Source: a bacterium (GTDB lineage: Bacteria > Auribacterota > Auribacteria > Auribacterales > Auribacteraceae). From it: DNA of 64,000 bases. Shown in pieces: positions 8,100 to 42,400 of the stretch. The translations under genes and the position numbers were made by a program. The stretch spans positions 64,584 through 128,583 of the forward strand of contig JACKPL010000003.1 of the NCBI GenBank assembly GCA_024233545.1, written 5' to 3'. The notes under the pieces are model-generated. The model was not told the origin of the DNA. It worked only from the letters and a program-made list of their open reading frames with translations, and did not search any database. Within the stretch, counting starts at the first letter, position 1, and every line of letters begins with the position of its first letter.

Positions 8100-8175
8100 T
8101 TTTCATTCCTTAATTATGTACGTGAAAAGTTAAATAAATATATAGCATATAATATGTTGGCAATCAAGATATTTC

Positions 8176-8195
8176 AAAAAAAAAAAAAAAAAAAA
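8176..8195. repeat. homopolymeric A20/T20 tract in a divergent intergenic region
   Basis: 20 consecutive A on the + strand. It lies 77 nt upstream of the minus-strand PEP-CTERM gene start (8099) and 4 nt upstream of a TTGAAC hexamer (8200-8205). Confidence 0.95.
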
Positions 8196-8339
8196 CTGCT
8201 TGAACAGTAAAGAAATAGTATACAAATAGTATGAAGTATGGTACACTGCCCCCCATTTTTACTATAAGTGCTGTATCAGCGAAATACAGCCACTGTGCAA
8301 GCTGAGAATAACATAACAATTTTTATAAGGGACGTTGGT

Positions 8340-22933: not shown

Positions 22934-23331
22934 TGCACGGCTCCTTTTTGAGCGGCAATAATAAAATTGTTGGAACCGGCTCGTTTAGCCGTATCAATAA
23001 CCTGAACAGCCAATCCGAAATCGATATGTTCATCGGCGTTCAAAATGACTTTCTTGTGCGGCGAAAGGGAGTTCTTAAGCAATCCGAAGAGTTCGCTGAT
23101 ATCTATTTTCGTATCATTAAAATATAATTCGTTATATTGGTTTATATATATTGTCAGTTCTTGTTGTTCCTGCGGTACGGCGCTCTGTGCTTTGGGCAGT
23201 GAAATAGACAAACCGGGGTTTATTATGAAATTTGCCGTAAGCATAAAGAAAATCAGCAGGAGAAATACGATATCAATTAAAGGAGCGATATTCAATTGGC
23301 AACCGGGACGTTTTGTTCTATCAAAGTCCAT
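22930..23331 (-). CDS. exbD: biopolymer transport protein ExbD/TolR
   Basis: 133 aa, reading ..LNIAPLIDIVFLLLIFFMLTANF.., the conserved TM Asp motif, plus a periplasmic domain. Has a 4-nt overlap with tonB. Confidence 0.9.
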   Translation of the reverse strand: MDFDRTKRPGCQLNIAPLIDIVFLLLIFFMLTANFIINPGLSISLPKAQSAVPQEQQELTIYINQYNELYFNDTKIDISELFGLLKNSLSPHKKVILNADEHIDFGLAVQVIDTAKRAGSNNFIIAAQKGAVQ

Positions 23332-24010
23332 GAGTTTCTACCTTATTTTTTTTGTTTTGGATTGAAACGGCAATCGGATTGCTTATCTGTTCTATGCCGG
23401 TTTTCCGGTATTCTTTACACCATTCTAAAACAGTCGATGCCGCTTCCTTCATGTGTGCGGCGGCGGTATCGATTTTCCCTTCGAAATGATGGTAGAAAAT
23501 CATTGCGGGAATTGCCGCGACAAGACTGGCGGCGGTGGTCATCAGCGCTTCCCAAATACCGCCGGCAAGTACAGATGCGTCAACGTTGCCGCTCAGTTCC
23601 TGAATTTTCATAAATGCCTTTATCATTCCTGTGACGGTGCCGAGCAATCCGAGCAGGGGAGATATATGGGCAATTAAACTGAGTGCACGAAGATGTTTTT
23701 CCATGCGCCGCAATTCCTTGGTTCCTTCAAGATGAATAATTTTCTCCTGTGTTTCTTTTGAACGGTTTTTTGCTTCAATACATTTTTTTACGATATGAGC
23801 AACCGGCCCGGCAGAACGTGCCGCAAGGCCGGATGCCGCATCGAAGTCGCCTGATTGTATAGCGCGTTTTATCGCTTCAAAAAAAGGTTCCTTATTGATA
23901 TGTGCCCGTTTGAGATGAAACATCCGTTCTAAAACAATGGCTCCAACCACAATAGAGCACGCAATGATCGGATACATAAAAAAACCGCCGCGCATTACGA
24001 AATCAAGCAT
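23321..24010 (-). CDS. exbB: MotA/TolQ/ExbB proton channel protein
   Basis: ..ISPLLGLLGTVTGMIKAF..LAGGIWEALMTTAASLVAAIPAMIFYHHF is a classic ExbB signature. ATG at 24010 (MLDFVMRGGFFMYPII..) is preferred over the track start 24109. Confidence 0.9.
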   Translation of the reverse strand: MLDFVMRGGFFMYPIIACSIVVGAIVLERMFHLKRAHINKEPFFEAIKRAIQSGDFDAASGLAARSAGPVAHIVKKCIEAKNRSKETQEKIIHLEGTKELRRMEKHLRALSLIAHISPLLGLLGTVTGMIKAFMKIQELSGNVDASVLAGGIWEALMTTAASLVAAIPAMIFYHHFEGKIDTAAAHMKEAASTVLEWCKEYRKTGIEQISNPIAVSIQNKKNKVETHGL

Positions 24011-24158
24011 ATGTGTGTCCTTGTTACTTAATCCATTAGACTGATCCATTCCATTTTGACAGCATTTCAATAATGAGAATAAGCCAGTATAGTTCCTTAG
24101 TTCTTGCACCCTGAGTGGGGTGTATTTCTTTTTCCTTCATACTAACCGAAACCTTTTA

Positions 24159-26258
24159 TCAGAATTTAAACGTACATGACCCCCCGACTACAAAATTTCT
24201 GGCGATGCCATGAAAATTAGTGAGGGGCTCGCGGTAATTTTTATTGAAAATATTTTCAACCGCCGCATGCACTTTAAATCCTTTGATATACGGTATATCG
24301 CAACCGACGCGAACATCCCATAATCCATATCCGGGAGTATGGAGGCTGCTATCGGCTATACGCTCATTGTCGTGAACGAATTCTCCTTCAACTTCGCAGA
24401 ACAAGTTCCATAGTGTATCTTGAGGTACTTGATAACGCACGCCGGTATGGACTTCTGCCGGTGTGATTGAATTGAGGAATACATCGGTGTCTTTGTCAAA
24501 CCCTTCGGTGATTTCCAGTGTTGCGAAGGTTGAAATACCGTTCCATATATCAATTTCGATAAATCCTTCGAGCCCGTATATCTCCGCATCGGAAACATTG
24601 CGTGCTGTTGTGGTGCCGCCGGGAGGGCCGAATGGCCCAAACGGAAAAGTAACGTCTACATCAAGGTCGATGAAATCTTTGGCGTCTATATAGAAGAAAA
24701 CCAGTTCGGCTTGTATCCTGTCGTGGTCGAGGCGTGCTCCTGCTTCCATACTTTTTGCCTTTTCAGGCCTTAAGTCGGGATTGGGAACAAATGTATTAAA
24801 GGCAAAATGGGTGCCGGTTGTGTATAATTCCAGCAAACTGGGCGATCGGAATCCATGTCCGTAATTTGCAAATAGGCTGAATTCGTCAGTAACTTTAAGT
24901 ACCGTAGCGATTTTCGGATTGAACCGGCCTTCTTCATTTTCGTCTTCGCCGGATGCCTGAGAGCGGTATTTATCCCAGCGAACGCCGGGGATAATGCTTA
25001 ACCTGCCGTCAAAAAAAGTAATCTCATTTTGGATATATACACCGAGGCTTTCAAAGTCGCCGGCGGGAAAACTGCCCAGCGGCGCACTGCCGGAACCGCT
25101 GGCAGTGCGGTTGCCTTCTGCGCTGTCTTGATAATATTCTATTCCGTATGTCAGGAGGTTCTCTATACCCGCTAATTCGAAAGCGCTGGTATTTTTAAAT
25201 TCGAGGCCGTAGGTATCAATGTCGCGGTCGTCTTTGATACCTTCCGAGGAGCGGTCATGTTGTATTTCAGTTAATTGGTAATAGAAATTCCCTTTGAAAT
25301 CGGCAAATAACCCGTAACCTTCGGCATGGGATAGTTCCAAGTTTAAAAGGTTGCGGCGTGTTGTCCGGTCGGTAAGAGTATTGGAAGTACTCAACGCGGT
25401 TGAGGGGTTGACGGGAACAATCGATTTTTCGTCATACAACGTGTTGCTGATAGTAAATTTGGTTATATCCGACGGGTTGAAAACAATTTTTGAAAATAAA
25501 TTGTTGCCGGATTGTTCCGAATCGCGCAGGCGGTCGCCGTTGCTTAATTTGATGCTGTCGCCGGTATCCCAATAGGTATATGAAATAAGGTATTCCAGAT
25601 AGTCGGTGATAGTGCCGAAGATTCGTTCGGTCTGGCGGAATTCCTGATTGGCTGAATTGAAAAGAGTCCGCGTCCCGATGCCGAAGGTTTCGTTGTCGAT
25701 AAGCATGTCGCTCGGGTCTTTGGTAATAATATTGATTACCCCGCCGATGGCATCGGAGCCATAGAGCGCTGACGCCGAACCGCGCAGAACCTCAATACGC
25801 TCTATGTCGTCGATATTGAGGAATAACCGTCCTTGATGGCCGCTGAAGAAATTCATGCGTGAATCATCCTGCCGGATTTGAACGCGCCTGCCGCCCAAAC
25901 CGCGAATGGTAGGCGATTGTCCAACTTGACGAGGCCCGGAGTTTATTTGCACACCGGGAATATCTTCCAGAATATCGCCGACATCTTTTGCGCCTTTTGA
26001 GAATATTTCCTCAGAGGTTGCCACGCCGACTGATTGCGGCGAATCAAGCAATGCACGGCGGGTTTTTGTGCCGGCGTACACAACTGTTCCAAGATCGTAC
26101 CGTCCGATGTTTGCAGGCAATGGCGGTGCGGGTGTTTGCTCATTTTTCGATTCGGCATTTTCCGCAAAGAGCGGTTGATAAGAAAATGCCGTCAATGCCA
26201 TTGCTATTAGAGCAACCAACTTCTTGTGAGCGGTGCAGTTAGATGTTACTGTATTCAC
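24159..26258 (-). CDS. TonB-dependent outer-membrane receptor (possible haem/tetrapyrrole or iron-complex receptor)
   Basis: GTG start with GGAGGA 9 nt upstream. Contains a signal peptide, a plug region (..GAKDVGDILEDIPGVQI..), a barrel and a terminal ..GGSCTFKF. An FRSP..H..NPDL region is present. Confidence 0.9.
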   Translation of the reverse strand: MNTVTSNCTAHKKLVALIAMALTAFSYQPLFAENAESKNEQTPAPPLPANIGRYDLGTVVYAGTKTRRALLDSPQSVGVATSEEIFSKGAKDVGDILEDIPGVQINSGPRQVGQSPTIRGLGGRRVQIRQDDSRMNFFSGHQGRLFLNIDDIERIEVLRGSASALYGSDAIGGVINIITKDPSDMLIDNETFGIGTRTLFNSANQEFRQTERIFGTITDYLEYLISYTYWDTGDSIKLSNGDRLRDSEQSGNNLFSKIVFNPSDITKFTISNTLYDEKSIVPVNPSTALSTSNTLTDRTTRRNLLNLELSHAEGYGLFADFKGNFYYQLTEIQHDRSSEGIKDDRDIDTYGLEFKNTSAFELAGIENLLTYGIEYYQDSAEGNRTASGSGSAPLGSFPAGDFESLGVYIQNEITFFDGRLSIIPGVRWDKYRSQASGEDENEEGRFNPKIATVLKVTDEFSLFANYGHGFRSPSLLELYTTGTHFAFNTFVPNPDLRPEKAKSMEAGARLDHDRIQAELVFFYIDAKDFIDLDVDVTFPFGPFGPPGGTTTARNVSDAEIYGLEGFIEIDIWNGISTFATLEITEGFDKDTDVFLNSITPAEVHTGVRYQVPQDTLWNLFCEVEGEFVHDNERIADSSLHTPGYGLWDVRVGCDIPYIKGFKVHAAVENIFNKNYREPLTNFHGIARNFVVGGSCTFKF

Positions 26259-26261
26259 TGA

Positions 26262-26501
26262 CTATAATCCTCCATCACGAACAACGCCGGTTGACCGGTA
26301 GAGCGCGTGTTTTCTGCTGTTGATGCAAACTCCACAAATATGGTCGTTTTGGATGTTAAACCGTTTCTTTTCATTCTTTTCCAACTGAACAACCGTTCCG
26401 TTATGAATTTTTATAATCACTTCGCCGAATGAGATTGTTTCTATCGCACTGATAATTTCATCAAGGATGCAAGGCGCTATTTTTTCTTTGTGTATGCTCA
26501 T
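26262..26501 (-). CDS. DUF2292 (YezD-like) small protein with extra Cys-containing tail
   Basis: 79 aa. ..ISAIETISFGEVIIKIHNGTVVQLEKNEKKRF matches my recollection of the YezD/DUF2292 core. The tail is ..NDHICGVCINSRKH.. Its start overlaps the CobN-like stop by 1 nt. Confidence 0.6.
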   Translation of the reverse strand: MSIHKEKIAPCILDEIISAIETISFGEVIIKIHNGTVVQLEKNEKKRFNIQNDHICGVCINSRKHALYRSTGVVRDGGL

Positions 26502-29500
26502 TATGCGGTTAGCCTCCTGCGGCGTATTCCTAAAATAACTGTTATGATGAATACACAGATTATACCTAACACTATCAATGCGGCGGATAAACTGTCCTTA
26601 ATCATTTCTTTTACTTTTTCAACAGTGACGGTTTCTTCTTTTAATGTCATGCCTTCCTGTTGCTGAGAAGCGGAGGAAAACGTAGTTTCGTTGATTTTCT
26701 CTGTATACTGCTGAGCTAGGGTAGGATCGGCAATGTTTGCGATCATTTGCTGAAGTTTGATATTGTCGCAGACAAACCCACTGCACCCTGCTTGGTATTC
26801 GCTGACAAGAGAAGTATGCAGATTTGCGATAGTTTTAATCATTTCCTCCGATGGTTTCCAGTATCCTTTGCGTACTGTTTCGAGCATAACCGCTGTCATT
26901 TCCTGCAAGGCATAGGGATTAACGTCCTTAAACCGGTCGATAATATTGAGCTCATGAATATCATCGATGTATACGTCATACAGAGTATTCCACAGCGCTT
27001 CATCGACTGCCGATGGTTTCATCACGTTCCATCCGAAAGTATTGCGGAATGTTTCAGCGAATTCTTCTGCGCCCGAGGCGCCTTCTTTGAGCATTTCGTC
27101 GATGAAAACAGGATTGTAAATAGTGGAACGCGCTTCGATCCAAATTGCTTGGGTTACTCCCTGTACCGTTGCGTTATATTTGTTGCGCAGGTCGCTGAAA
27201 TATGATGCAGGGTCATTGCCGGTAACCGAACGTATTGCGGCATTAAGCCCGCCCATAAATTCATAGGTATGGTCGAGCGACAAGGGGCCGGTCATGTTGC
27301 TCGAACGAGGGTGCATGACGGTGTCAGTATGCTGAAGAGCGGCTTCAAACATACCCGGCGCGTAAACGCTCCAGCGGCCTTTAGTGTACATTGCGCCCAT
27401 ATTTTCTATGTATTGTGTAGCGATTTGGCTGTCGTTTTCCCATGCGTCGCCGTCTTCAACCAGCGGCATAATGCCGGTGCCGTATTGCCCGTTGATGCCG
27501 CCGAACACTCGAACGGTAGAAAAGGTGCGGGCTTCTTCGGGAGAAAACCCTTTTTGTTTGAGCACTTTTTCTGCGGCACCGGTTCCTCTGCGCACATAGT
27601 TTGGAAATGATTCCGTTCCCTGTGCTTCTGAGGCAATCCGAATAGCTTTTTCGATCAGGTAAATGCGCGATGCGGCAAGGTCGCGGAATTGCCCTGATGT
27701 TTGGACAAACACGTCGATGCGCGGCCTGCCGAGAGTTTCTGTAGGAATAAGCCTTACATCATATACCCTGCCGCGAGAGTTCCATACCGGTTCAACGCCC
27801 AGCAGATAGAGTATCTGAGCAATATTAACTCCCTCGCCGCGTATAAATTCGCCGCCCCACAGGCTGAATGCCACTTTTTCAGGGTAATTCCCTTTAGAAT
27901 ACAGCGATGATTCAAAAAGTTGCCCGACGAGTTTCTGTGCCGTTTTCCATGCTTCTTTTGTCGGAGTTCGTTCGGCATCGATGGAATAGATATTTTTACC
28001 GGTTGGAATAGCCGACGGGTTGATAATGGCGTCGCCGCCGGATGAAGGAGCAGTATATCCGCCGTTAAGTCCGTTCAACAACGCTTGAAGCTCCATCGCC
28101 GCTGAGCCCTGCAAATCGGCAACATATTGCTTTACCGATCGTAATGCGTCGCGATAGGTGCGGATTGCTTGTGCGCGTTCTGCTTCTTTTCCGCGTATTT
28201 CTGCAATGCGAGCCCGAGCGCCATTGATTGTATTTTTAATAAAACTGGTAGCTTGATCGCTTCTTAAAATTGCGCCGACGGCTTTTGCGTTGCCCGTGCC
28301 GGTTTGCGTTATCGCATCGGCAAGAGCGGTATTCCCGATGTAAGATTCCAAATGTCCGGCAAATGTTTCCAGTGTTTGCGTATCCCATTGGTTCAAAGCA
28401 GTTTTAAGTTTTTCCGGCTGTTGCGTAAGGAAAAGATCGGAAGTGTAGGGTTCTGAAAGTAATTGTGCCGTCAGTTCACGTTCTTTCTGTTGTTTTTCTG
28501 CTTGTATGCGTGCCTCGAAATGTGTGTCTTTAAGAAGTTCAAAAGTATATTCCCGTGCCTGTGTATTCTGCATTGTTTCAAGAAGGCTCATCATATCAGG
28601 CTGGACGAGCAAATCGATCTGCTTTTTCATTGCCGGTATCAATTGAGCAATTTTTTGTGTTTTGTCGCGGGTAACCGGATCGAGTAGCGCGGAACTTTTA
28701 TTGAATTTTGTTTCATTTTGCATTTCAAGTACGGCTTTTTTCTTTTCAGGGTCGGATGCGATGGCGAGAACCAGCGATGCAACGTGTTCTTTCTGAAATG
28801 GTTGTTCTGCTTGTGCTTGCTTCTCGTTGCCTGTCCCGAGCTGAAACATGCTTAACAGCCATTCTTCTTCAGACAATGTTTTGTTTTCTTGTTCCCATTT
28901 TTCAAGGAACGCTGAGTCTGCCGGATCGATCAACGAATCGGGTTGTGCCGTGCCTTGGAGAATTGCATTCAGGTATTCGCGGGCGTGTGTCCCATATAGA
29001 GCGTTAAACTCATGGGCGTTCTCATAGGCCGCATCAGTGGTTTTCCCTGTGAGGATGTCCATGGCGGCCATGCTGTACATAACCGGGTCAAGTGCCATGA
29101 GCAAGGCAGTTTCGTATATATCAGTTTGATCATATGGTGTGCCGAATGTATGGAAGCCTCGTATGACTTTTTCCGCTTCAACGGCATGAATATGATTATG
29201 CAGTTTCATGATCCCTTCTTCAGAAAACCGTAAGTATTGTGATGAGAGAATACCGGACGCTTCGGCAACGGTTTTATTGGCGGAAATGTATTCCAGCAGA
29301 TTTTTTTCAGATTGAAACTGCTGTTCGGCGGCCGGCGCATTAACGACGCTTTGTTGCAATGCTGTTAGCTGAGCATCAGGAATAGTTCGGCTGTATTCTG
29401 TTATTCTCTCAACCCCTTCTTGAGTTAAACGCGTAAAACGGCGGTCAATGAGTGACAAGTCGATATGAACGTCAGTTTTAATTGCCAGATCGAACAGAGA

Positions 29501-31405
29501 TTTTTCATGTTCTTCTTTGAGCATTTTGTCTTCAACATTCAAAAGCGCATGAAGCTTGTCGTGCAGAAGAGAAAAATCACCGTATAGTTCTGTTTTCATA
29601 AACGGCGGCGTGAGATGCGAAATCATGGTTGCATATATTCTTCGTTTTGCCATCATTGCTTCGCCGACATTATTTATCACATAGACATAGTGGTGCGGTA
29701 TGTCGCCGATGAGGTTATCAGCCCAATCATAATGAGAGAGCGCAACTTGTTTGCCGGGAGTAAACTCAAGGCTTCCATGTGTGCCGAAATGGATGATGGC
29801 ATCGGCATTAAAACGGTGCCTGCTCCAGAGATATGACGCTATATAGGTGTGAGTTGCGGCTTTATTTGCTCCATGGAGAAGATTGTATTCGTTTTCGCCA
29901 TATGCCGGCGGCAGAATGGGCAACAGGACAACATTGCCGAATTGAACACGAGGGATAGCAAGGTATTGTGCACCGTTGCGCGTCACATTCAGGTATTTCC
30001 CGGGAGGCGGCCCGTAGGTGTCGATTACCTCATTGAGGCGTTCTGCAGGGATATCGCTGTAAAACCATTGTTTGTATTCATCAACGGTAATGAGTTCAGG
30101 ATTCCCTTCGTTGATAAATTTTTCGATAGTGCCTTGTGCATAAATGCCCAATACCGGCCCTTCTTTGTTTATCCGTGCGGAAAATTCTTCGGCGGTTTGC
30201 GGCAGTTCGCCGGTAGTATAACCGGCATCTTTGAGCGATCGAAGCACGTTGAGCAGTGAATCGGCAACGTTCATGCCTCCGGCAACAAGCGAATTGAGCC
30301 CCGGCGCTTTGATATAATAAATTGCCACTTTTTTTTCTGCGTTGGGTTTGGTTTGCAGTGTCAACCAGTTATGAACCAATGAAACACATTTTTCCAGCCG
30401 GTCGGTAATGGCTTTAAATACATATAATCCGTTTTCATTTTTAAACTGAGCGGTGAGTACCCGCGGGTTCGTGGATCCGTCGAGTTCGGGAACCACGATG
30501 TTTTGCCCCATTTCGCCTCCTATCATTCCGCGCTGGTCAGCCATCCAATCTTCGTAGGGAACGAGAATATTCAGCGGTGCTATCAAAGGAATGTTTTGCT
30601 CTTTGAGCCATGCTACCGCTTCATCTCCTCTGCCGATTGCTAAACGGCCGTGTGGAAAATAGATAACAAGATTTGGATTTATCTCCTTAAGAAAATCAAG
30701 CCGTTTCAAAAAACCGTCTATGGGATATACGTTGATCTCCTTGTTTTCTAGCGCGGAAATCAATGCGTCAATATGTTCGCGGTTTGAGTTGCGCGGACCG
30801 GCGGTGGATGTGATAACCGCGACGCGCGGGGCATTTTCTTTATATAATCCGCTCTGCACATAAAATTGCTGGTATTGTTCATATGATTCAAAATAGTTCT
30901 CGTCACTGATGTGAAAAAAGGTGTCGTCGGGGATTGTGTGCGGTTCGCTAACGGTACTGGTAAACAGTTTTTTCCCATCGAGTGTGCGGCGTGTATAATT
31001 GAGAAGGTTTTTATAATTCTTTAATCCGCCGTACGACAAATAGTTTTTTACCGATTTCAGCTGATTGCCGGTTAAACTGGTTATGTCATTCTCATCGCTT
31101 GTTGCGGCGTGAGAGTAAACCGGCACCCCATTTTTTATGGCATTTTTTATATGTCCGCGCTGTTCTTCCGATAACGTTTTCCCATGAGCAAAAATGTACA
31201 CTGCATCGAACCGTTTCACCGAGTGCAGTTTATCTAAAGGAATACTTGATAACCGTATAAAAGGGTTTGTGTTGGCTTGTAAAAATTTTGCGTATTGGTA
31301 ATCGGCAAAATTCACCAATGCAATCCGTGTTGGGGCGAGGTATTTCTCATAGCCAATCCAACAGGCGAATATAAGAAGGCTAATAAGCAAGATTTTCTTT
31401 TTCAA
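26501..31405 (-). CDS. CobN/Mg-chelatase family protein, HmuS-like, 1,634 aa, membrane-anchored at both ends
   Basis: Hallmark CobN motifs IIHFGTHGSLEFTPGKQ (nt ~29765-29794) and IPTGKNIYSIDAERTPT (nt ~27983-28009). N-terminal TM KKKILLISLLIFACWIGY and C-terminal TM LSAALIVLGIICVFIITVILGIRRRR. Confidence 0.9.
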   Translation of the reverse strand: MKKKILLISLLIFACWIGYEKYLAPTRIALVNFADYQYAKFLQANTNPFIRLSSIPLDKLHSVKRFDAVYIFAHGKTLSEEQRGHIKNAIKNGVPVYSHAATSDENDITSLTGNQLKSVKNYLSYGGLKNYKNLLNYTRRTLDGKKLFTSTVSEPHTIPDDTFFHISDENYFESYEQYQQFYVQSGLYKENAPRVAVITSTAGPRNSNREHIDALISALENKEINVYPIDGFLKRLDFLKEINPNLVIYFPHGRLAIGRGDEAVAWLKEQNIPLIAPLNILVPYEDWMADQRGMIGGEMGQNIVVPELDGSTNPRVLTAQFKNENGLYVFKAITDRLEKCVSLVHNWLTLQTKPNAEKKVAIYYIKAPGLNSLVAGGMNVADSLLNVLRSLKDAGYTTGELPQTAEEFSARINKEGPVLGIYAQGTIEKFINEGNPELITVDEYKQWFYSDIPAERLNEVIDTYGPPPGKYLNVTRNGAQYLAIPRVQFGNVVLLPILPPAYGENEYNLLHGANKAATHTYIASYLWSRHRFNADAIIHFGTHGSLEFTPGKQVALSHYDWADNLIGDIPHHYVYVINNVGEAMMAKRRIYATMISHLTPPFMKTELYGDFSLLHDKLHALLNVEDKMLKEEHEKSLFDLAIKTDVHIDLSLIDRRFTRLTQEGVERITEYSRTIPDAQLTALQQSVVNAPAAEQQFQSEKNLLEYISANKTVAEASGILSSQYLRFSEEGIMKLHNHIHAVEAEKVIRGFHTFGTPYDQTDIYETALLMALDPVMYSMAAMDILTGKTTDAAYENAHEFNALYGTHAREYLNAILQGTAQPDSLIDPADSAFLEKWEQENKTLSEEEWLLSMFQLGTGNEKQAQAEQPFQKEHVASLVLAIASDPEKKKAVLEMQNETKFNKSSALLDPVTRDKTQKIAQLIPAMKKQIDLLVQPDMMSLLETMQNTQAREYTFELLKDTHFEARIQAEKQQKERELTAQLLSEPYTSDLFLTQQPEKLKTALNQWDTQTLETFAGHLESYIGNTALADAITQTGTGNAKAVGAILRSDQATSFIKNTINGARARIAEIRGKEAERAQAIRTYRDALRSVKQYVADLQGSAAMELQALLNGLNGGYTAPSSGGDAIINPSAIPTGKNIYSIDAERTPTKEAWKTAQKLVGQLFESSLYSKGNYPEKVAFSLWGGEFIRGEGVNIAQILYLLGVEPVWNSRGRVYDVRLIPTETLGRPRIDVFVQTSGQFRDLAASRIYLIEKAIRIASEAQGTESFPNYVRRGTGAAEKVLKQKGFSPEEARTFSTVRVFGGINGQYGTGIMPLVEDGDAWENDSQIATQYIENMGAMYTKGRWSVYAPGMFEAALQHTDTVMHPRSSNMTGPLSLDHTYEFMGGLNAAIRSVTGNDPASYFSDLRNKYNATVQGVTQAIWIEARSTIYNPVFIDEMLKEGASGAEEFAETFRNTFGWNVMKPSAVDEALWNTLYDVYIDDIHELNIIDRFKDVNPYALQEMTAVMLETVRKGYWKPSEEMIKTIANLHTSLVSEYQAGCSGFVCDNIKLQQMIANIADPTLAQQYTEKINETTFSSASQQQEGMTLKEETVTVEKVKEMIKDSLSAALIVLGIICVFIITVILGIRRRRLTA

Positions 31406-31427: not shown

Positions 31428-31760
31428 TTATTCGGGGATATAAATTATTTCACCATTTTCCAGCTGATACGCAGTGCCGACTTTTTTTCCCCTGCCGCGC
31501 CCCGTTCCTTCGGCGGCTTTATATTTCGTGATCTTTTCCCCTCGTTTCATAATAATTTCCATATCATCTTTACCGGGATTTTTTACCATCGTCATTTCAT
31601 CGTGAGTGAAAAGTTCTGTTAAGTTCAAATGTGTAACGAGAGCGACCATCAAAGCGACGGCGAAAACCATGCCTAGATCGAATAGGTTAGCCATACCTGC
31701 TAAGGGATCATTGTCGAATTCGTCTGTCAGTATTAAATGATGTTTGCTGTAGTTTCGCAT
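31428..31760 (-). CDS. DUF2149-like single-pass protein (ExbD/TolR-like topology)
   Basis: 110 aa. ..DNDPLAGMANLFDLGMVFAVALMVALV.. is a single TM with an Asp at its cytoplasmic edge, followed by a small soluble domain. It is encoded directly after a MotA/ExbB-like gene with a 28-nt overlap. Confidence 0.6.
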   Translation of the reverse strand: MRNYSKHHLILTDEFDNDPLAGMANLFDLGMVFAVALMVALVTHLNLTELFTHDEMTMVKNPGKDDMEIIMKRGEKITKYKAAEGTGRGRGKKVGTAYQLENGEIIYIPE

Positions 31761-32359
31761 GTCTTTCCTATTTCGTGTTGAGCAAGTTGCAGGATATAGC
31801 GCAAATGTGAAATATCTTCAACAAACCATCGCTTTTTTATCAAATGGGTAATGAATCCGACTGCGCCGACAAAAATCCCTACGACTGTGGTAGAGAAGGC
31901 TACCTGCATATTAACCGCCATCGATGCGATGTTGCCCACCGCCAATCCGACAAGAGCTGGCCCCATGGGTATCAGTGTTCCCATCAATCCGAGCATAGGG
32001 CCGAGCCGGACAAGCGTTTGGGACGATTCAAGCGATTTTGCGCCGGCTATCTCATAATCATCGATGATTTTATCTGCGTGCGGTGATTGCCAGCGGACAC
32101 GTTTCATGTTTGCCAGCGGCAGAGATAAGTGGTTTTCTGCTGAGAGCTCAGATTCGAAAACAATTGATTGTACCGGTGTATGCCGGAGTGTTTCCAGCAG
32201 GTCGGAAAATTTTTTCCCGTTCGAAAGGCGATGCATATAAATTCCGTAAAATGAACCTGCCATAAATAATGCCCAAATGAAACACCACAATAGCGCAATG
32301 ATGACTGGAATAAGGAGTCCGGAAGAAATCCAAAACAAACTGTTTGTTAATATGCTCAT
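31733..32359 (-). CDS. MotA/TolQ/ExbB-family proton-channel-like protein (second copy, divergent)
   Basis: 208 aa. ..LVRLGPMLGLMGTLIPMGPALVGL..MQVAFSTTVVGIFVGAVGFI resembles the ExbB/TolQ channel helices. Overlaps both neighbours. Confidence 0.7.
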   Translation of the reverse strand: MSILTNSLFWISSGLLIPVIIALLWCFIWALFMAGSFYGIYMHRLSNGKKFSDLLETLRHTPVQSIVFESELSAENHLSLPLANMKRVRWQSPHADKIIDDYEIAGAKSLESSQTLVRLGPMLGLMGTLIPMGPALVGLAVGNIASMAVNMQVAFSTTVVGIFVGAVGFITHLIKKRWFVEDISHLRYILQLAQHEIGKTCETTANII

Positions 32360-33042
32360 TCTGTCCCCTTCGATTGTTTATAGGCTGTTATAAGATATCC
32401 TGTGCCGGCGATTACTCCCATGCCGAACAGTAGTAATACAGTATTGAAAAGGCTTGTCTGCGTGGAAATGTTCACCATAGGCAATCCACTTATTACCATA
32501 GGGGAAAACATTGCAATGAGCATCTGAGCGAAAACGATAAGCGCTTTCAATTCCACTCGCCATTCCCAGCGGGGCAGAAGGTGTTTGAACAACCATGCTC
32601 CACCGAAAAGAAGGATAAACAGCCCGAAAGAGATAAAAAAAGAAATAAACGAATACGAGTATCCTTGGATTAGGTTGAACATCATGGTTTGAGCGCATAA
32701 AATTCCCAAAAGAAAAATTCCGGAAGGAAATAAGCTTAAATACTCTATTCGCCGTGATTTGGCCTGCAGGCATCGGGTGTGTATCAAAGCGAATGCCGTT
32801 GCCATTACGACAATTGCCTCACCTATTTGATAAGCACAGAATCCCGTTATCATTTCGTAATTCATAAACCATTGGTGTAACAGCCTCAGGCGTATCCTTG
32901 CTGAAAGAAACGCAAATGAAAAGTTAAAAATAGAAATCCCTAAACACATCAGAAAATGCCCTCTTGTTGTTTTTGTCAGGGAAATATTTATGAGGGTATG
33001 AATAAGCCCTACAATAATGAGTGCCGTAAATAATAACCACAT
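32356..33042 (-). CDS. polytopic membrane protein, first gene of the operon (DUF2162-like position; unassigned)
   Basis: 228 aa with 6-7 hydrophobic segments. ATG at 33040-33042 and a 4-nt overlap with the next gene. I recognise no motif with confidence. Confidence 0.6.
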   Translation of the reverse strand: MWLLFTALIIVGLIHTLINISLTKTTRGHFLMCLGISIFNFSFAFLSARIRLRLLHQWFMNYEMITGFCAYQIGEAIVVMATAFALIHTRCLQAKSRRIEYLSLFPSGIFLLGILCAQTMMFNLIQGYSYSFISFFISFGLFILLFGGAWLFKHLLPRWEWRVELKALIVFAQMLIAMFSPMVISGLPMVNISTQTSLFNTVLLLFGMGVIAGTGYLITAYKQSKGTE

Positions 33043-33080
33043 GTCCTTGCCTAAAAAGGAAATTTATAAAAAACAAATTA

Positions 33081-33109
33081 GATATATCAAACATTATTGG
33101 TCTAGTCAA
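33081..33109 (-). promoter_or_regulatory. candidate sigma70-type promoter of the 12-gene operon
   Basis: On the minus strand, TTGACT (complement of 33104-33109), a 17-nt spacer, then TATATC (complement of 33081-33086), about 40 nt upstream of ATG 33042. An AT-rich GATAAATATTATTTGAC segment overlapping the -35 resembles a Fur box only weakly (about 10/19). Confidence 0.35.
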
Positions 33110-33178
33110 ATAATATTTATCTATACATAGTTTTTTTGAGAGGATGAATAGCTTTTAAAAAAACCTTTATTCAACTAT

Positions 33179-33213
33179 GCGCGGAATGGCGTGGAAAAGC
33201 GCGGAATACCGTG
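33179..33213. promoter_or_regulatory. GC-rich 15-nt direct repeat (x2, 20-bp phasing) in the divergent control region
   Basis: GCGCGGAATGGCGTG (33179-33193) and GCGCGGAATACCGTG (33199-33213), a 13/15 match. They are followed by inverted repeat GCTTTA-N8-TAAAGC (33213-33232). The repeat stands out in an otherwise AT-rich spacer. Confidence 0.4.
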
Positions 33214-33439
33214 CTTTAGAGATGCGTAAAGCATTGCAAAAAAACAATTTGAAAGTCATATCTATCTTCTGAAAAGCAGGATAGATTATTTGCTTTTAGG
33301 TGGGAACAAGAATTGCGTATCCCTTGATGAATAATCATGAAATAAAAATACATTGTATTGGTCACAGAAACTTTTAAAATTTGATTTTTTTTTCAAAAGA
33401 GAAGAATTTTTATATAAATCCATATTTAAAAGGAGAAAT

Positions 33440-36400
33440 ATGATGAATACAGTAGGTGGTACAAGGGGTGGATATCCGCCTATAGTGAAATCTGTTTATT
33501 GTCTTTCTTTTTTCCTCTTGCTTATCCTTTCAGCTTCCTCCGTTTTCCCCATTGATTTAAGCGTAACAGGAACCACAACTTCAATCGATTCGGTACGTTC
33601 ACAGGTACAAGGTACTAATACTGCGGGAACAAGTTCGGTCAGCGTAGCCAATGGATCGTTATTTACTGTTGGCGCACAGGTGTTTATCATCACGATGCAG
33701 GGCAGTTCCATCGGTGAATATGAGTTCAATACAATAGCCGGCATCTCTTCCAATACGTTGAATTTGCAGAATGTCCTCTCCCACACCTATGGAACAAGCG
33801 CTCAGGTAATCCAAGTAACGGAATACGGAACGGTAACTGTTTCCAACAGCGGTATTCTGACCTGCTCAGATTGGGATGGTTCGACTGGCGGTGTCTTAGT
33901 GATAAAAGCCTCTGGTGTGGTAGTTGATTCAACGAGTTTTATAGATACTTCAGCAAAAGGTTTTCTCTCTACAACAGGCACGGGTGCAGGAACTTCCGCT
34001 ACAAGTAGCAATGGCGCCGGCGGCGGAGCGTACGGCGGCGATGGCGGTGACGGTTACAGCGGGTATGCAGGCGGTACGGGCTATGGATTGATTCATCAGC
34101 CGGCCTGCATGGGGTCTGCCGGCGGACGTAATACGACATACAGCAATAACGGCGGCGACGGCGGTGGAATCGTTTTTATCGAAGCGAGCGGGACAGTGAC
34201 GGTCAACGGTGTTATCCGGAGCAATGGGCAGAATTCTCCAAACAGCCATTCTTATAACGGCGGTGCCGGAGCCGGCGGGTCGATTTTCATTTCTGCCGCT
34301 TCCATAACGGGTACCAATGGGGCGTCATATATGGAAGCATCCGGTGGATCGAATAATTCGACAAGCTATCGCGGCGGCGGTGGCGGCGGCGGGCGTATTG
34401 CCATCCATTGTGCCGCAGGGTCATATTCTTATTCCGGAGAACTCAAAGCATTTGGCGGTAGCGGGTACAACGGTTTTTACGGTGGTGCCGGAACCATTTA
34501 TACAAAAAAAGGCACGGATGAAAATATCGATATCGTCAACATCGATTATAACTGCGATTATACACAATTGGCTCATGATGGCACGGATATTTCAGTCAAT
34601 GTTATGTACGTCGAATGGGCTCGGTTGAATTATGTCAATTTTGAAGGGTGTACCATCCTCGATGTGCGTAACAGTGATTTGACTCTGAACCCTTCTTCAG
34701 ATGCTGAATTCGACACAGTTGTTTTTGCGGTCGACTTGTCAGGAACCCGAACGCTTGCCCTCGCTCAAAATGTGACAGTTAATACGGTTACCGTTGCAGG
34801 ATTGAACGAATCGAACCATGCAAATCTCACGCTTTCGGGCGGAACCAATATTACTGATAAAATCAACTTGAACGGCTATACATCGCTGACAAATAGTACC
34901 GACATGGCGGTTCCGGTAAAAATTTATTTAAGCAATAATGATAATGATATTACGAATAATGCGGGCAACCATTTGCGGTTTGCTAACTTTGAACTCGGAA
35001 ATAATTCCAATTGCACTAATAATGGCACGATAGAAGTATTAAATGACCTGATTTCTGTTCCAAACGGCAGTATCATTCAAGGTTCCGGTTCGTTTTATGA
35101 TAACGACAATAACCTTATTGTATATTCAGGCGGAACATATGTGTCTCAAACAGCTGATGCCGAATACTTTAATAATATAGAATTTCAGTCCGGCGCAACA
35201 GTATATCATCTTGGTAACTCGACGGCGGAGTCGTATAAACTTCATTTTGTATGTAGCGGCAACTTTACTATTCAGGACGGGGTAACCATTGATCTTACCG
35301 GTAAAGGATATCGGTACGCAAGCGGTCCCGGTGCAGGAAACGATGCATTGTATTATTCCGGATGCGTATACAATCATTATTCATACAATTATTATTACAA
35401 TGGCGGCGGCGGCGCGGCTCACGGCGGAAATGGTTCTGATGCCTACCAGCTCAGCGGGAACTATGGAAAAGGCGGAGACCAATATGGTGATATTTCCAAC
35501 CCTGTTAATATCGGTTCAGGCGGTGGAAACGGTAAATATACTTATCTTGGATATGCGTACTATGCCTGCTATTCTGTAACCACATATCAGGGCGGTTACG
35601 GCGGTGGTGCGTTCATTGCTGATATTGCTGGGACATTTACCTTAAACGGAACGATTAAAGTCAACGGGACAAACGGCACTTCCGGTTCAGGTAATGCATC
35701 AGGCGGCGGCGGCGCAGGCGGATCGGTGAATATTTCATGTAATGATTTTATCGGTACGAATGTATCGGCGAGTATTGAAGCCAACGGCGGTAGCCGGTAT
35801 TCCGGACAATACGGCGGCGGTGGTGCCGGCGGACGCATTTCAATAAAAGCCGATTCATCGTATTCTTTTGCCGGTTCTTTATCCTCTTACGGCGGTAACG
35901 GCAAAGGAACGAGCTCTTCTTCAAGCTATACTGTATACGGCGGCGCAGGAACGATCTATGTAAAAAATGGTTCGCAAGATTCATTGACAGTCAAAAATGC
36001 AATTACCCAAACGGACTTTATTACCAGCGATTTAACCACGATTAACGACTCGGAAATTCTCCAAGACGGAACCGTGCTTGATCTTCAAGGTGTTAATGTC
36101 GATATGACGGTTGGGATGTCTGTCAATACGGTGAGCATCATCGATTCCCAAGTAAACGCCGCAACAGCATCTGATATTACCATCAATACGGTTACGGTTT
36201 CTACCCCATCCACCCGCAACAGCACCTTCCATTTAGGAAGTGTTACGGGAAATGTTTCGATTACCACCATGAACGTTACCGGCTACAATGCTTCATACCG
36301 CGGGCAATCTACCGTGCCGGAAAACAGCATACTTATGTATTTGGAACTCAACGGATATACAACAATATATAATTACGGCACTATTGCAACCGCTGTTCTT

Positions 36401-39400
36401 AACAATACCGATAACGACATTTATAACTATTCAAGCGGTTCCATAGGATTTCCCGTTTTGATTATCACAAACGGGAGTACATTTTTCAATGCTGGGATTT
36501 TTGCCGTCGGCGATAACAACCTGACAGTAGAAAGCGGCGGTACATTTCAATCTCAAACCGCCGCCCCCATGACGTTCAATACGGTATGGATTAAAAACGG
36601 CGCGACGGTTACACAATCCGCATCAACGGCATCCAACGAGTATAAAATATATTTTATATGTACAGATTTTACCTTGGAACAAGGCGCAACAATCAACGCA
36701 AGTTTTAAAGGTTATCCGAACACACAAGGACCGGGTAAAGGTATGTCTACCTCGTCATCCAGTTACGGTGCCGCGGGCGGTTCGTATGGCGGTAACGGAA
36801 GCAACGGATATAATGTTGAAGTAGAATGCGAGGGATACGGTTTAATAACTGATCCGGTATATGTCGGTTCGGGCGGCGGCGACAATACCTATAGTTCCCT
36901 TTCCCGCGGCGGATACGGCGGCGGCGCAGTAATTCTTGAAGTAGCAAACACGGCGGTTATCAATGGATATATCTATGTAAACGGAGAACCTGCATCAAGC
37001 GGCGGGACTTCGCGCCATGGCGGCGGCGGTTCAGGCGGTGCAGTTAATATCGAAGCCGCAAATATCTCACTCGGTTCGACAGCACGGTTGGAAGCAAAAG
37101 GCGGTAGCCGCTATTCGTCATATAACGGCGGCGGCGGCGGCGGCGGGCGTATTGCGTTGAAAGCTTCCTCGAGCATGACAATCGATCCGAGTTCGGTTGT
37201 TGAATATTACGGCGGGCAAGGATACAACTCGATTTACGGCGGCGCAGGGACATACTATACGAAACTTGGATCGGTTGAAAAACTCTTTATTCAAGGAACA
37301 AATCAAAATCGCGCTCAGACAATAATAGACGATACTGCCGAACCGATTAACCTTACGTTGCTCTCTTTGAATCAAGCTACCGTCGATCTCCTTTCGCTGA
37401 CTGGATGTACTGAATTGCAGGTAGTCAACACCGACCTTATGTTTCTGCCGACAAACGCTATAACGATTGATACCGTAGCTATTTCCCTCGTTTCGTCTGC
37501 GTTGAATAATAGGCGTTCAACATTCGGCGCTTTGGTTGATATGGCTAATGTTACTGTCCAAGGATACAATGCTTCCCGCCATGCTGAACTTGAACTGGTA
37601 AACGGCGCTGATATTACAGCAAGCCTGCAGACAAACGGATACACAACAGTATACAATAATACTTCGATAAACCTTCCCGCAACATTTACTATGTCGGGGA
37701 CAGACAACGATATATATAATTATTCTTCAGGAATTATCATATTGCCGACATTTGTCGTATCTGCCAACTCCTATGTTCAGGATTTCGGAACGATTACGCC
37801 CGTTGACACTAATCTCACTATCAATAGCGGCGGAATATATGATATCGCAAAAAATGCAACTCTAACATATACCAATGTAATAGTGAGCGGAACCCTGACG
37901 CATACTCAGGATACTGCAAACAACTGCGATATCGACATAATTTGTACAGGCAACCTTACCGTTTCCGGAACGATCGATGCTTCCGGCAGGGGATATGTGC
38001 AGGATGACGGCGCAGGCAAAGGGACAAGCACCTCAAACAGTAGTTACGGCGGCGGCGGCGCAGGGCACGGCGGACGCGGTTCCGAAGCATATAGCGCAAT
38101 AAGCGGCGGTTCTCAATACGGAGTCATAAAACATCCCGTTACTTACGGTTCAGGCGGCGGTTCAAATACCTATTACAATTATCTCGGCGGTTCGGGCGGC
38201 GGGCGAGTCAAGCTTGTTGTTGCGGGGACTGCTACTGTTCAAGGTACTATCAAGACAAATGGAATAAGCGCACCGAATGGCGGTAGTTCGCGTTCGGGCG
38301 GCGGCGGATCGGGCGGAAGTATCTGGATTGATACTTCAGTTTTAACCGGAACCGGTTCTATACAATCCAACGGAGGCGACAACTATTCTTCTTCATCATA
38401 TTATGGCGGCGGCGGCGCGGGCGGGCGGATAGCAATCTATACAAGTTCCAGCAACTCTTTCAATGACAGTCAATATATCGCTTCAGGCGGTAGAGGGTAT
38501 AATAATTTCTACGGAGCCGCCGGAACAATTTATGTCAATAATAACGCAGTTGAAAGTCTCATCGTGAAAAACAGTTCTACTTCTCAAAGAGAATTGACTG
38601 TTATAGAGAATGACAACGAAACCCCGTCTGATCTCGAAATATTTAAAATCCAAAATGCAAATATCCAGATTGATAAACTGGCAACTGTATCGATGATGGA
38701 TGTTGACGATTCCGATGTCAATCTTAACCTTTCTGCGGCATGTAGTATTAACCAACTTGATTTTGTTGTAGGCGTTGCGGTAAGCAATAGAACACTTACC
38801 GTGCCGGCAATGGCTGATATCGTATCGCTTATGTTCGATGGGCATAATTCATCGTACCGCGCTATTGTTACCCTTGCGGACGGTGTCGATATCACAAATT
38901 CAATTACTTTGAACGGTTATACGACACTTCATAATTATACGGTCATAAACCTGCCGTATGGTTTCCATATGAATAATACGGATAACATTATTTATAACTA
39001 TGGCACCGGCCATATTACTTTTGCATCCTTAATCATAAGCGGCACGGCGATTCATAATGATGGGACAATCGTGAGCCAAGATAAAACAATCACAATCAAT
39101 AGCGGCAGTACTTTCTACGTCAACAGCCAGATGCCCTTACCCGACTATGATTTGATTGTGAATTCCGGCGGAACATATTTCTGCCAGACTGCTGTACCGA
39201 TTCAATTCCGTCACGTCACCGTTAATACCGGCGGAATAATGACGCATGATTCGAATACGAATACGCCTGCATATAAATTAGCATTTGACTGTTCAGGAAA
39301 CTTCACGCTCAATACCGGCGGTTTAATAGATGTGAACGGCAAAGGATATACGTATGATCAAGGCCCCGGCAAAGGCACTCAGCCGACAAACAGCTCCTAT

Positions 39401-42400
39401 GGCGGCGGCGGAGCCGGATACGGCGGCGACGGAAGCGATGCCTATAACAACACTGTTTCTGCCGGGCAAGGCGGCAGTGCATTCGGACAACTCAACAATT
39501 CTACCGAACTCGGATCGGGCGGAGGAAGCACCTACAATGGAACCTATGGCAACGGGAGCGCTGGCGGCGGCGCAGTTATACTTGACATCGCCGGAACACT
39601 AACTCTTGACGGTACAATCAGGGCAAATGCGGCTGATGTAACGTCCGGTTCAAGCAGTCGATGCGGCGGCGGAGGAGCTGGCGGTTCGGTGCATATGCAG
39701 GCATCGGTTATTACTGGAACAAATACCTCTGCGATAATCGAGTCAAAAGGCGGAAAACGGTATTCAAGTTACTATGGCGGCGGCGGAGCTGGCGGGCGTA
39801 TTGCGTTGATCTGCACAACCTATTCGTATTCAGGAGATTTTAATGCCGCCGGCGGACAAGGTTATTACAAAAACGGCGGTACTGGAACCGTATATATCGA
39901 AGACAGCGCCGTAAAACATGTTAAAGTTATTGGAAGCTTGCCTTCATCATCTTCAATCCCTGAATATGAGTTAACTCCAATAAAAGATAACGATTCCGTT
40001 CCGTCAATTGTAGCGACGTATGAAATCGATTCGGCAAATGTGGAAATCAACAAACTGCAAACCTGTGAAACAATGACGTTGATTGATGCAGATGTGAATA
40101 TCAATACATCCTCAACATGCACAATCAATACGGCAACGCATACCGTTCATAATAACACCTATAAACATCGGCGAATAACCTGCCAACCGAATACAGTGAT
40201 TAAAGATTTTACCGCTCAGGGAACCGTTACTTCCTATCATGCGGAATTAGAGCTGATAAACGGTTCGTCGATCAAAGACCATCTTGCAACAAACGGGTAT
40301 ACGACCCTGTACAATTATACAACGATAACTCTTCCTTCCGCTCCGAATGATTTTTCTCGCAGTGGAACGGATAACGATATTTACAATTATGAAACAGGGA
40401 ACATAACCCTCCCTACTCTGGTTGTTACGCAATATTCGTATATTCAGGATTTCGGCGTCATCACTCCGGTCGATACCGATCTTACGATCGACAATGGCGG
40501 AACCTATGACATTGCAAAAAATGCCGCCCTTACTTTTACTGATGTCATTGTGAACGGTACGCTCACCCATACGCAAAATACAACATCGGGATATAAAATT
40601 AAGCTTGTTGTCACCAATGGATGTACCGTCGGTGCCACAGGATTGATTGATGCAGTAGGAAAAGGGTATGGTTCCGAACAGGGGCCCGGAGCCGGCGCCA
40701 ACCAGAATGTATCGAACAGTTCATATGCCGGCGGCGGCGGCGCGTATGGCGGTTGGGGCGGAAAATCATATAATAACCTTGCGAATACCAATCCGCCTTA
40801 TGGCTCTCTCACTAATCCGGTTGATTACGGTTCGGGCGGCGGGCGAAACACATATTACAGTTTTCCGGCAGGGTCAGGCGGCGGCATTGTCGATATCACT
40901 GTTGCCGGTTCTTTAACTGTCTCCGGAACGATTCGATGCGACGGTTCAAACAGCGATCAGAAAGGCGGCGGCGGGTCAGGAGGATCCATTAAACTTGTTA
41001 CTAATATTTTGACCGGAACTTCGACGGGAATGATAGCCAGCAACGGCGGAAATAAGTATACCTATGGCGGCGGCGGTTCAGGAGGAAGAATTGCGGTATA
41101 TTGTAATTCAAACAGTTATGCCGGCCAGTTCCAAGCGTCCGGCGGAGACGGCTATAATCATTCCACAAACCGGTATGGCGGAGCAGGAACCGTTTATATT
41201 GATGCAAACGGCTCAAAAACCATACAAGTTAAAAATACCTATAGCGGATATAAGGCGCCAACCATTATTGATAACGATGCCGCTATTCCGGCAACAGTTG
41301 AGAACTATATAATCGAAAATGCCGATCTGACTGTAAAAAAACTTACCGGCTGTACATCAATGTCTGTAAAAGATTCAATAATAGTATTTGACAATATCGG
41401 CGTTGCGAATATTACGAATATGACCGTTCAGGGTTCGAATACATCTTACGGTAAGTCGGTTGTCACTATTCCTGCCAGTATGTCGATTACCAATCAAATG
41501 ATACTGAACGGATATTCACTGTTGAATAATTATGGGCAAATCAATCTTCTGCAGTTAAATAACAATTACAATGATGTCTACAATTATACCGGCGCTGTTG
41601 CGGCGGCGCCAACCTTAGATTTGCACCAGTACTCTAATTTTGCGAATTACGGCGCGTTTTCGATTCAGGACGGAAATCTGGTAATTGGAAATGCAAGCAC
41701 CTATACGGTAACGGATAAAACACAACTTACATTTAACAATGTGACTATTCAGTCTGGAGGCATTTTAACACATCTGCCGAATACCAATCAGGAATTATAT
41801 AAGGTCAATATATATTGTACAGGGAATTTTGATATTCAGTCCGGCGGCAAAATAGATGTAAGTGCGAAAGGCTATTCTGCCAGCGAAGGCCCCGGTGCAG
41901 GCAGTGACATATCGACTTCGAGCTATGGCGGCGGCGGCGCATCGTATGGCGGGTTAGGGTCGCAAGGATATTCAAACGTTGCGGCGGGTGTGTCATACGG
42001 TTCCATAAGTAACCCGACCGACCTTGGTTCAGGCGGCGGCACCAACACTTATCAGAATTATCAAGGCGGCGCGGGCGGCGGCGCGGTGATTCTTGATGTT
42101 GACGGGACATTCACAATCAACGGATATATTTATGCAGACGGTGGAACTCCATCTACTTTGACAACCTACAATGGCGGCGGCGGGTCGGGAGGATCGGTTA
42201 ACATTACAGCTACAACGCTTAATGGTTCCGGATACATCTATGCAAAAGGGGCGTATAACGGAAGTACCGGATATTACGGCGGCGGAGGAGGCGGCGGGCG
42301 TATTGCTATTTCTTGTGCCGCCAATAATCATTCCTATCCCGATCGGTTTCAAGCCTATGGAAATTATGGAAGGTCTACCGGCACCTATTACCGAGGCGGC

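Follow-up and report, generated by a model that had tools for sequence, protein, structure and literature searches.

A stator-like HmuUV pair in an hmu-type heme operon of an uncultured Auribacterota bacterium may serve the putative dechelatase HmuS rather than the outer-membrane receptor

Results

An hmu-type operon with its own canonical TonB system

We analyzed a 64,000-nucleotide (nt) stretch of contig JACKPL010000003.1 (positions 64,584 to 128,583, forward strand; GenBank assembly GCA_024233545.1, phylum Auribacterota), referred to below as the window, with a focus on three overlapping minus-strand genes that code for proteins of 228, 208 and 110 amino acids (aa). A preliminary description of this DNA placed these genes at the start of an operon and presented them as a second, divergent stator-like module. 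All three open reading frames (ORFs), and their position at the head of the operon, were confirmed, and identical proteins are also found in public data. The module itself is not new, as the genes are hmuT, hmuU and hmuV of the already known hmu heme system (PMC11681262, PMC10100974). The hmu operon of Porphyromonas gingivalis and Bacteroides thetaiotaomicron has the order hmuY-R-S-T-U-V, where HmuS is homologous to CobN, HmuT is a hypothetical membrane protein, HmuU belongs to the MotA/TolQ/ExbB family and HmuV is a DUF2149 protein (PMC11681262, PMC10434189).

The window operon consists of 12 closely packed or overlapping minus-strand genes that run from position 33042 down to 18333, with the three-gene module at its head. 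These genes, and the region upstream of them, are as follows:

32356-33042, minus strand: hmuT-like gene, 228-aa polytopic inner-membrane protein (ORF and hydropathy)
31733-32359, minus strand: hmuU-like gene, 208-aa MotA/TolQ/ExbB-family channel subunit (PF01618, E=2.9e-9)
31428-31760, minus strand: hmuV-like gene, 110-aa DUF2149 protein, single membrane helix with Asp28 (PF09919, E=8.4e-33)
26501-31405, minus strand: hmuS-like gene, 1634-aa CobN-family protein, extracytoplasmic and membrane-anchored, probable heme dechelatase (PF02514, E=1e-286)
26262-26501, minus strand: 79-aa DUF2292 gene (PF10055, E=3.5e-14)
24159-26258, minus strand: TonB-dependent outer-membrane receptor of the heme/hemoglobin type, HmuR-like (plug and beta-barrel domains, TIGR01785)
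23321-24109, minus strand: canonical exbB (PF01618, E=3.1e-31, near full length)
22930-23331, minus strand: canonical exbD (PF02472, E=6.2e-29)
22082-22933, minus strand: canonical tonB (TonB_C, E=1.9e-15)
21022-22065, minus strand: ABC substrate-binding protein (SBP_bac_8/6/1/11)
19439-21031, minus strand: ABC fused double permease (BPD_transp_1 twice)
18333-19442, minus strand: ABC ATPase (ABC_tran)
33043-33352: AT-rich intergenic region of 310 nt between hmuT and a divergent 5071-aa ORF, presumed promoter region

The hmuT and hmuU genes overlap by 4 nt and hmuU and hmuV by 28 nt, and 22 nt separate the end of hmuV from hmuS. The apparent 242-nt gap between hmuS and the receptor gene is not empty but holds the 79-aa DUF2292 gene at 26262-26501, overlooked in the preliminary description, whose start overlaps the hmuS stop, and the operon is therefore contiguous. 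The same hmuS-DUF2292-receptor arrangement is also present in L027 and L093, two loci of the collection described below, and the DUF2292 gene may be a conserved accessory of non-Bacteroidota hmu-like operons.

The receptor scores 403 bits against the TIGR01785 TonB-hemin model (cut-off 316.85). A corrinoid-related (BtuS-like) locus was rejected on the grounds of this heme-type receptor and of the lack of any cobalamin riboswitch in the window. The canonical ExbB-ExbD-TonB set is complete, as had been claimed: the N-terminal helix of TonB contains SxxxH ('SLFIH'), its linker is acidic and includes proline, and the membrane Asp of ExbD lies within 'APLIDIV'. No gene of the operon matched the HmuY family in Pfam and NCBIfam scans, and many published hmu-like operons also lack HmuY (PMC10100974). 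The released iron is probably taken up by the ABC importer, for which iron as a substrate is suggested only by genomic context.

Overall, the module contains the same three families as HmuT, HmuU and HmuV of the Bacteroidota hmuYRSTUV operons (P. gingivalis PG1554-1556; B. thetaiotaomicron BT_0491-0493), which likewise accompany an HmuS-type CobN homologue and a heme receptor. There are, however, several differences. The Bacteroidota order Y-R-S-T-U-V is replaced by T-U-V-S-DUF2292-R in a non-Bacteroidota host, and the window operon carries exbB-exbD-tonB genes and an ABC importer of its own, with HmuY not detected.

HmuU, HmuV and HmuT

Assignment of the 208-aa protein as MotA/TolQ/ExbB-like holds both for sequence family and for predicted fold. 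Specifically, HmuU scores 37.2 bits against PF01618 (MotA_ExbB; cut-off 22.9, E=2.9e-9), and an AlphaFold2 model built from a 42-sequence alignment (pLDDT 91.8, pTM 0.81) has as its best Foldseek matches full-length TolQ (8vlw, the top structural match), and ExbB (7ajq, 5sv0 and 9ddo), with probability 1.0 and TM-scores of 0.55-0.65 over ~205-220 columns. The model fits the three-helix membrane topology and the long cytoplasmic helices of solved ExbB and TolQ structures, whereas its structural matches to PomA and ZorA are far weaker (Foldseek ranks 46-50). A sequence search of the PDB with HmuU alone gave no meaningful match. Two HmuU motifs, GLMGTLIPMGPAL and AFSTT, are invariant among the 42 homologues and align to LGLLGT and MTT, respectively, of the operon's canonical ExbB. 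T128 in the second transmembrane helix (TM2) and T157/T158 in TM3, the Thr residues expected to line the ion path, are invariant in these homologues and align to those two ExbB motifs.

HmuV matches the full PF09919 profile (positions 1-92; 113 bits, E=8.4e-33) and has 55-66% identity to its Bacteroidota homologues. Its layout is that of ExbD and TolR: little of the protein precedes the membrane on the cytoplasmic side, and the one membrane helix carries a conserved Asp close to its cytoplasmic end. This residue, Asp28 within 'ANLFDLG' (motif N-L-F-D), is an Asp in 366 of the 368 DUF2149 sequences that span the helix and shares an alignment column with the ExbD membrane Asp. Its conservation supports the preliminary description, in which the ExbD Asp was noted at the equivalent place. 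The extreme C-terminus, G-x-AY-x-L-x-x-G-x-I-I-Y-I-P-E, is strongly conserved as well.

The claim that the 110-aa protein is ExbD-like stood for topology, Asp motif and gene order but not as a family assignment. HmuV has no match to the Pfam ExbD model (PF02472), DUF2149 being the only family found even at E<=10, and hhalign of HmuV with the operon's ExbD aligned the two Asp residues over 16 columns at a nonsignificant E=0.13. A PDB sequence search with the HmuV profile also gave no meaningful match. The monomer model (pLDDT 54) has the helix at residues 21-44 as its sole confident part and a periplasmic region of ~65 aa, and a fold search from this poor model returned only noise, such as actin fragments. 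Thus, it is the match in topology, Asp position and gene order that gives HmuV its likeness to an ExbD/TolR-type subunit, even though the sequence family test fails.

In regards to HmuT, this protein is polytopic by hydropathy and gave no match in Pfam, NCBIfam, the PDB or PADLOC, whether the sequence was used by itself or in a profile of 10 members. A 228-aa start is favored over a 197-aa gene call because the homologues begin with an identical Met-Trp; conserved positions are M1-W2, S21, L22, N51, E75, P106, R162 and A177. In T-U-V-S loci the HmuT homologue immediately precedes the MotA-like gene, whereas some Bacteroidota loci (L034, L072) have it between S and U. A separate observation is that L093 contains a 430-aa ORF (3162-4454) composed of a ~200-aa polytopic domain and a full HmuU (40% identity to the window HmuU, E=3e-35). 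From its sequence this is a possible HmuT-HmuU fusion, seen in a single case where a sequencing or assembly artefact is also possible.

The adjacent CobN-like protein is a probable HmuS-type heme dechelatase

HmuS was described in 2025 as a membrane-anchored periplasmic heme dechelatase that converts heme to protoporphyrin IX and Fe(II), with a cryo-electron microscopy structure; its activity is ATP-independent, enriched in the membrane fraction and highest there (PMC12583661). The hmuSTUV genes are co-induced under iron limitation (PMC10434189); this induction, like the dechelatase activity, is known only from the Bacteroidota homologues. The best PDB match of the CobN-like protein encoded next to hmuV is this dechelatase (9d26, 1135 bits; ChlH scores 378 bits), and the protein keeps the equivalents of H254, H538, E577, D1208, H1209 and E1212. 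These matches make it a probable HmuS-type heme dechelatase. It differs from Bacteroidota HmuS at three 'HmuS-specific' positions, with M79 replaced by His, Q1198 by Ser and W1202 by Thr. Note that Q1198 and W1202 are cleft residues and that Met79 is a heme-site-1 ligand of B. thetaiotaomicron HmuS. As the equivalent of Met79 is His in the window protein (residue ~75; window 31405-31180, minus strand) and His254 is kept, a bis-His site would replace the Met/His site.

The window protein is anchored at its N-terminus and ends in a membrane helix followed by RRRR. All CobN-like partners that were checked likewise start with a signal peptide or anchor and have a membrane helix and basic residues at the C-terminal end. 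Such an anchored topology places these proteins outside the cytoplasm and thus out of reach of ATP. No AAA+ gene of the ChlI, ChlD, CobS or CobT type is present in the 64-kb window, where the sole AAA+ protein is DnaX; the preliminary description was correct that the chelatase-type ATPase is missing beside the CobN-like gene. We also observed a conserved G-x-x-[LM]-[EK]-[KE] motif, for example 'EGMTLKEE', located ~25-35 residues before the C-terminal helix of HmuS (window 26501-26700, minus strand; loci L001-L080). The helix itself is otherwise unconserved among homologues, and the motif could be a juxtamembrane contact site.

The HmuUV pair follows CobN-like genes across lineages

Operon proteins were mapped onto 80 genome loci, 80 metagenome loci and contigs targeted for divergent DUF2149. 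The loci were chosen by similarity rank, and Bacteroidota dominate among them; the counts given here are from the 79 loci with enough flank on both sides. A MotA-like gene lies directly before the DUF2149 gene in 78/79 loci, and a CobN-like gene adjoins this U-V pair in 75/79, which confirms the co-occurrence that had been anticipated. A TonB-dependent receptor is located at most 9 kb from the pair in 61/79 loci, and a further tally shows 15/79 loci with a CobN-like gene and no receptor within that distance. The U-V pair therefore follows CobN-like genes more tightly than it follows the receptor (75/79 versus 61/79), which suggests that HmuS, rather than the receptor, is the partner of U-V.

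Gene order was S-(T)-U-V in 66 loci, mostly from Bacteroidota, and (T)-U-V-S, as in the window, in nine loci from Planctomycetota, Omnitrophota, Latescibacterota, Ignavibacteria, Opitutales and others. A core of S, U and V is kept in the divergent lineages represented by L091, L095 and L096, with S present both with and without a receptor: L095 is S-U-V with no receptor, L096 has the order S-R-U-V, and L091 (4213-9387) has a CobN-like gene (1378 aa, signal peptide and C-terminal anchor) followed by the MotA and DUF2149 genes, with no HmuT, receptor or TonB. The neighbors of L091 are of archaeal type (PheS, PRK04172; RNase HII, TIGR00729; PAC2; and the MJ0043 family). In addition, four lineages, namely the window, L017 (Sedimentisphaerales), L027 and L093, carry a canonical exbB-exbD-tonB set in the T-U-V-S cluster, which suggests that the two pairs are non-redundant.

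A metagenome scan seeded with the archaeal-clade DUF2149 returned no second archaeal case and found mostly gut Bacteroidota at 39-52% identity. Another locus, L081 (1-3119), is labelled 'Thermoprotei archaeon' and has T-U-V, then what is left of a CobN-like gene, which is short, and part of a TonB-dependent receptor gene. It carries a receptor and is therefore bacterial and mis-binned, and the locus looks degraded.

Finally, an actinobacterial/Coriobacteriia clade has a divergent MotA plus DUF2149 pair with neither a CobN-like gene nor a receptor (L086 6535-11126, L088 1792-4476 and L089 6540-11121). Nearby genes code for a secreted protein of ~590 aa that is anchored at its C-terminus, a polytopic ECF-S-like protein of 194 aa that shows no BLAST similarity to HmuT, an anchored protein of 150 aa and a CW_binding_2/Fn3 protein, and genes for a molybdate ABC transporter and for molybdenum cofactor lie next to them. 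The pair and its neighbors look like an uncharacterized stator-like system of monoderm bacteria.

Sequences flanking the operon

The region upstream of hmuT has one weak sigma-70-like match (33090-33061), and a scan of promoter and terminator consensus sequences scored no better than shuffled sequence. In the same region the histone 3' stem-loop model matches below its threshold (33125-33170, minus strand; 26.6 bits versus a gathering score of 34), probably through a chance hairpin in AT-rich sequence. Divergent from hmuT is a giant ORF of 5071 aa (33353-48568, plus strand) with no Pfam match in its first 1000 residues; a CARDB domain is annotated in it by the contig's public gene calls. Downstream of this ORF are a 362-aa ORF and then an 1144-aa protein with TSP3, NIDO and CarboxypepD_reg domains. 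Elsewhere in the window, a 2290-aa ORF (11436-18308, plus strand) has an unusual architecture, with an ABC ATPase near residues 1612-1754 as its sole recognizable domain, and a bacterial large signal recognition particle RNA (RF01854, 156 bits) is encoded at 3887-4156 on the plus strand, which hints that the host is neither a typical proteobacterium nor a typical member of the Bacteroidota.

Discussion

A candidate motor for HmuS

The preliminary description had proposed that the second pair is dedicated to the CobN-like protein. Part of this proposal is supported by the tighter link to CobN-like genes, the receptor-free loci and the coexisting canonical sets, and part is weakened by the TonB of locus L094 (described below) and by the CobN-free actinobacterial clade. 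With this balance we give even chances to HmuU and HmuV forming an ExbBD/TolQR-type ion-driven motor that serves HmuS and not the outer-membrane receptor. For such a motor we infer a 5:2 assembly, ion flow, a physical coupling to HmuS and an energy requirement. Heme would enter through the receptor, powered by TonB with the operon's canonical ExbB-ExbD-TonB set, and HmuS would strip Fe(II) from heme in the periplasm, a task taken to need energy or a strong pull. The HmuUV motor, together with HmuT where present, would give membrane-potential energy for repeated substrate loading, for porphyrin distortion or for product release. Its output would reach HmuS directly or through HmuT and would play the role that the AAA+ partner has in cytoplasmic CobN/ChlH chelatases, and the ABC importer would take up the released iron. 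Proton flow may in this manner substitute for an AAA+ motor, as the preliminary description had also suggested. Targeted searches of a library of papers found none that proposes a membrane-potential-driven dechelation, and a 2026 paper states of HmuT/U/V only that they 'may affect this activity' (PMC13227078).

A broader version of this idea is somewhat less probable. Here a MotA-like plus DUF2149 motor would have replaced the class I AAA+ ATPase and so powered metal removal outside the cytoplasm, with a CobN-like/MotA-like/DUF2149 triad conserved from an archaeon to Bacteroidota and the pair acting as a general 'power take-off'. Actinobacteria would then combine the same MotA/DUF2149 pair with a different partner near molybdate-uptake genes.

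Relation to known ion-driven and chelatase systems

The pair resembles ExbB-ExbD-TonB in that HmuU has the fold of ExbB and its Thr motifs in TM2 and TM3, the U and V genes are adjacent and overlapping, and the one helix of HmuV bears an Asp close to its cytoplasmic end. It differs in that HmuV fails PF02472 and has a shorter periplasmic part, that the module has no TonB-like gene except in L094, and that the pair is found where an outer membrane is absent. With TolQ-TolR-TolA it shares the structural match of HmuU to TolQ 8vlw noted above; however, there is no TolA, TolB or Pal context, and DUF2149 takes the place of TolR. The superfamily of Asp-dependent 5:2 ion-driven motors also includes the MotAB/PomAB flagellar stators and ZorAB, which gave weak structural matches, but the HmuUV module has no peptidoglycan-binding domain and no PADLOC match. 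A Zorya-like defence system was rejected by this lack of a PADLOC match.

Energy for the class I chelatases ChlH-ChlI-ChlD and CobN-CobS-CobT is supplied by AAA+ ATPases in the cytoplasm. Their large subunit is homologous to the HmuS-like protein (PF02514), and the likeness as we draw it is that the large subunit needs a separate energy-supplying partner. In contrast to these enzymes, there is no AAA+ partner gene in the window, the conserved neighbor being the MotA/DUF2149 pair, and the HmuS-type enzyme is extracytoplasmic, membrane-anchored and de-chelating, and works without ATP (PMC12583661).

Evidence against a dedicated motor and rival explanations

Several observations weigh against a motor that is dedicated to HmuS. 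Purified HmuS makes protoporphyrin IX without TUV, although for only 1-2 turnovers, a stall for which the authors mention 'the need for additional cofactors' among the possible reasons (PMC12583661). Homology between HmuV and ExbD is not statistically established at the sequence level, and the HmuS membrane anchors, examined for a docking signature, have no conserved polar motif akin to the SxxxH of TonB. As for gene neighborhoods, the Bacteroidales loci L016, L061 and L074 have T-U-V without an adjacent CobN-like gene, and Mesle et al., using a 30% identity threshold, reported many genomes with HmuS undetected beside TUV (PMC10100974). The actinobacterial clade has the pair in the absence of CobN, L091 is a single case on one 18.6-kb metagenome contig that is archaeal by its neighboring genes only, and in L094, which has the order R-S-TonB-U-V, the usual HmuT position is taken by a TonB of 267 aa (7566-8369) with a 'SLVVH' SxxxH motif, a proline-rich linker and a TonB_C domain.

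This genuine TonB of L094 is the one gene context that speaks for U/V working with TonB, and it fits a different explanation, in which HmuU and HmuV are a specialized ExbB/ExbD that energizes TonB and hence the receptor HmuR, the canonical set being redundant or reserved for other receptors. The ExbB/TolQ fold of HmuU, the ExbD-like Asp and gene position of HmuV, and the 61 loci with a receptor within 9 kb are likewise in its favor, as is the established cross-talk between TolQR and ExbBD in E. coli. Published models also draw HmuU/V as the receptor's ExbB/ExbD (PMC10100974, PMC12583661). We nevertheless regard this explanation as unlikely given that the archaeal-looking L091 has S-U-V and no receptor or TonB, that 15 loci have S and no receptor within 9 kb, that a monoderm actinobacterial clade holds the pair, and that four lineages have a complete canonical exbB-exbD-tonB set in the cluster. 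The failure of HmuV to match the ExbD Pfam model, its ~65-aa periplasmic part and the tighter association of the pair with S than with R argue in the same direction.

A transporter role, where HmuT-U-V form or energize an inner-membrane transporter that moves heme, protoporphyrin IX or Fe(II) between periplasm and cytoplasm downstream of HmuS, has been proposed previously (PMC12094164, PMC13227078). The tie of these genes to S rather than R agrees equally well with this role, HmuT is polytopic with conserved charged residues E75 and R162, and the possible polytopic-HmuU fusion in L093 suggests a physical T-U association. On the other hand, HmuT is missing from the S-U-V loci L091, L095 and L096, and the conserved core is therefore without an obvious permease; the window operon already has an ABC importer and L093 encodes FeoB; and no MotA/ExbB-family complex is known to act as a solute transporter. 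We consider this role slightly less likely again than one in energizing TonB. It is very improbable that the MotA/DUF2149 pair is only a general membrane-anchored scaffold or regulator, involved in assembly, gating or signaling with no energy transduction to HmuS. Unrelated partners in Actinobacteria (the ~590-aa anchored secreted protein and the ECF-S-like protein), and a HmuV C-terminal motif that is conserved whatever the partner, speak for a scaffold, but the membrane Asp and the Thr channel motifs are almost absolutely conserved, which is the signature of an ion-conducting stator and not of a passive scaffold.

Significance

The window locus adds an hmu STUV module, from an uncultured non-Bacteroidota diderm bacterium, that differs in gene order and comes with a TonB system of its own, an ABC importer and a DUF2292 gene. 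The presence of a TonB system and HmuTUV in one operon, plus receptor-free and archaeal-looking triads, argues against HmuU/V as the receptor's ExbB/ExbD. HmuS itself was identified in 2025 as the anaerobic heme dechelatase that enables gut and oral Bacteroidota to use heme iron (PMC12583661). The architecture reported here, taken with those triads, makes the role of HmuT/U/V a specific hypothesis, namely that dechelation depends on the membrane potential and the Asp of HmuV. Rotation, gliding, outer-membrane transport, envelope integrity and phage defence are the outputs known for 5:2 ion motors, and, if the hypothesis is true, enzyme catalysis would join them. If true, it would also provide a target for limiting the use of heme iron by pathogens such as Porphyromonas gingivalis.

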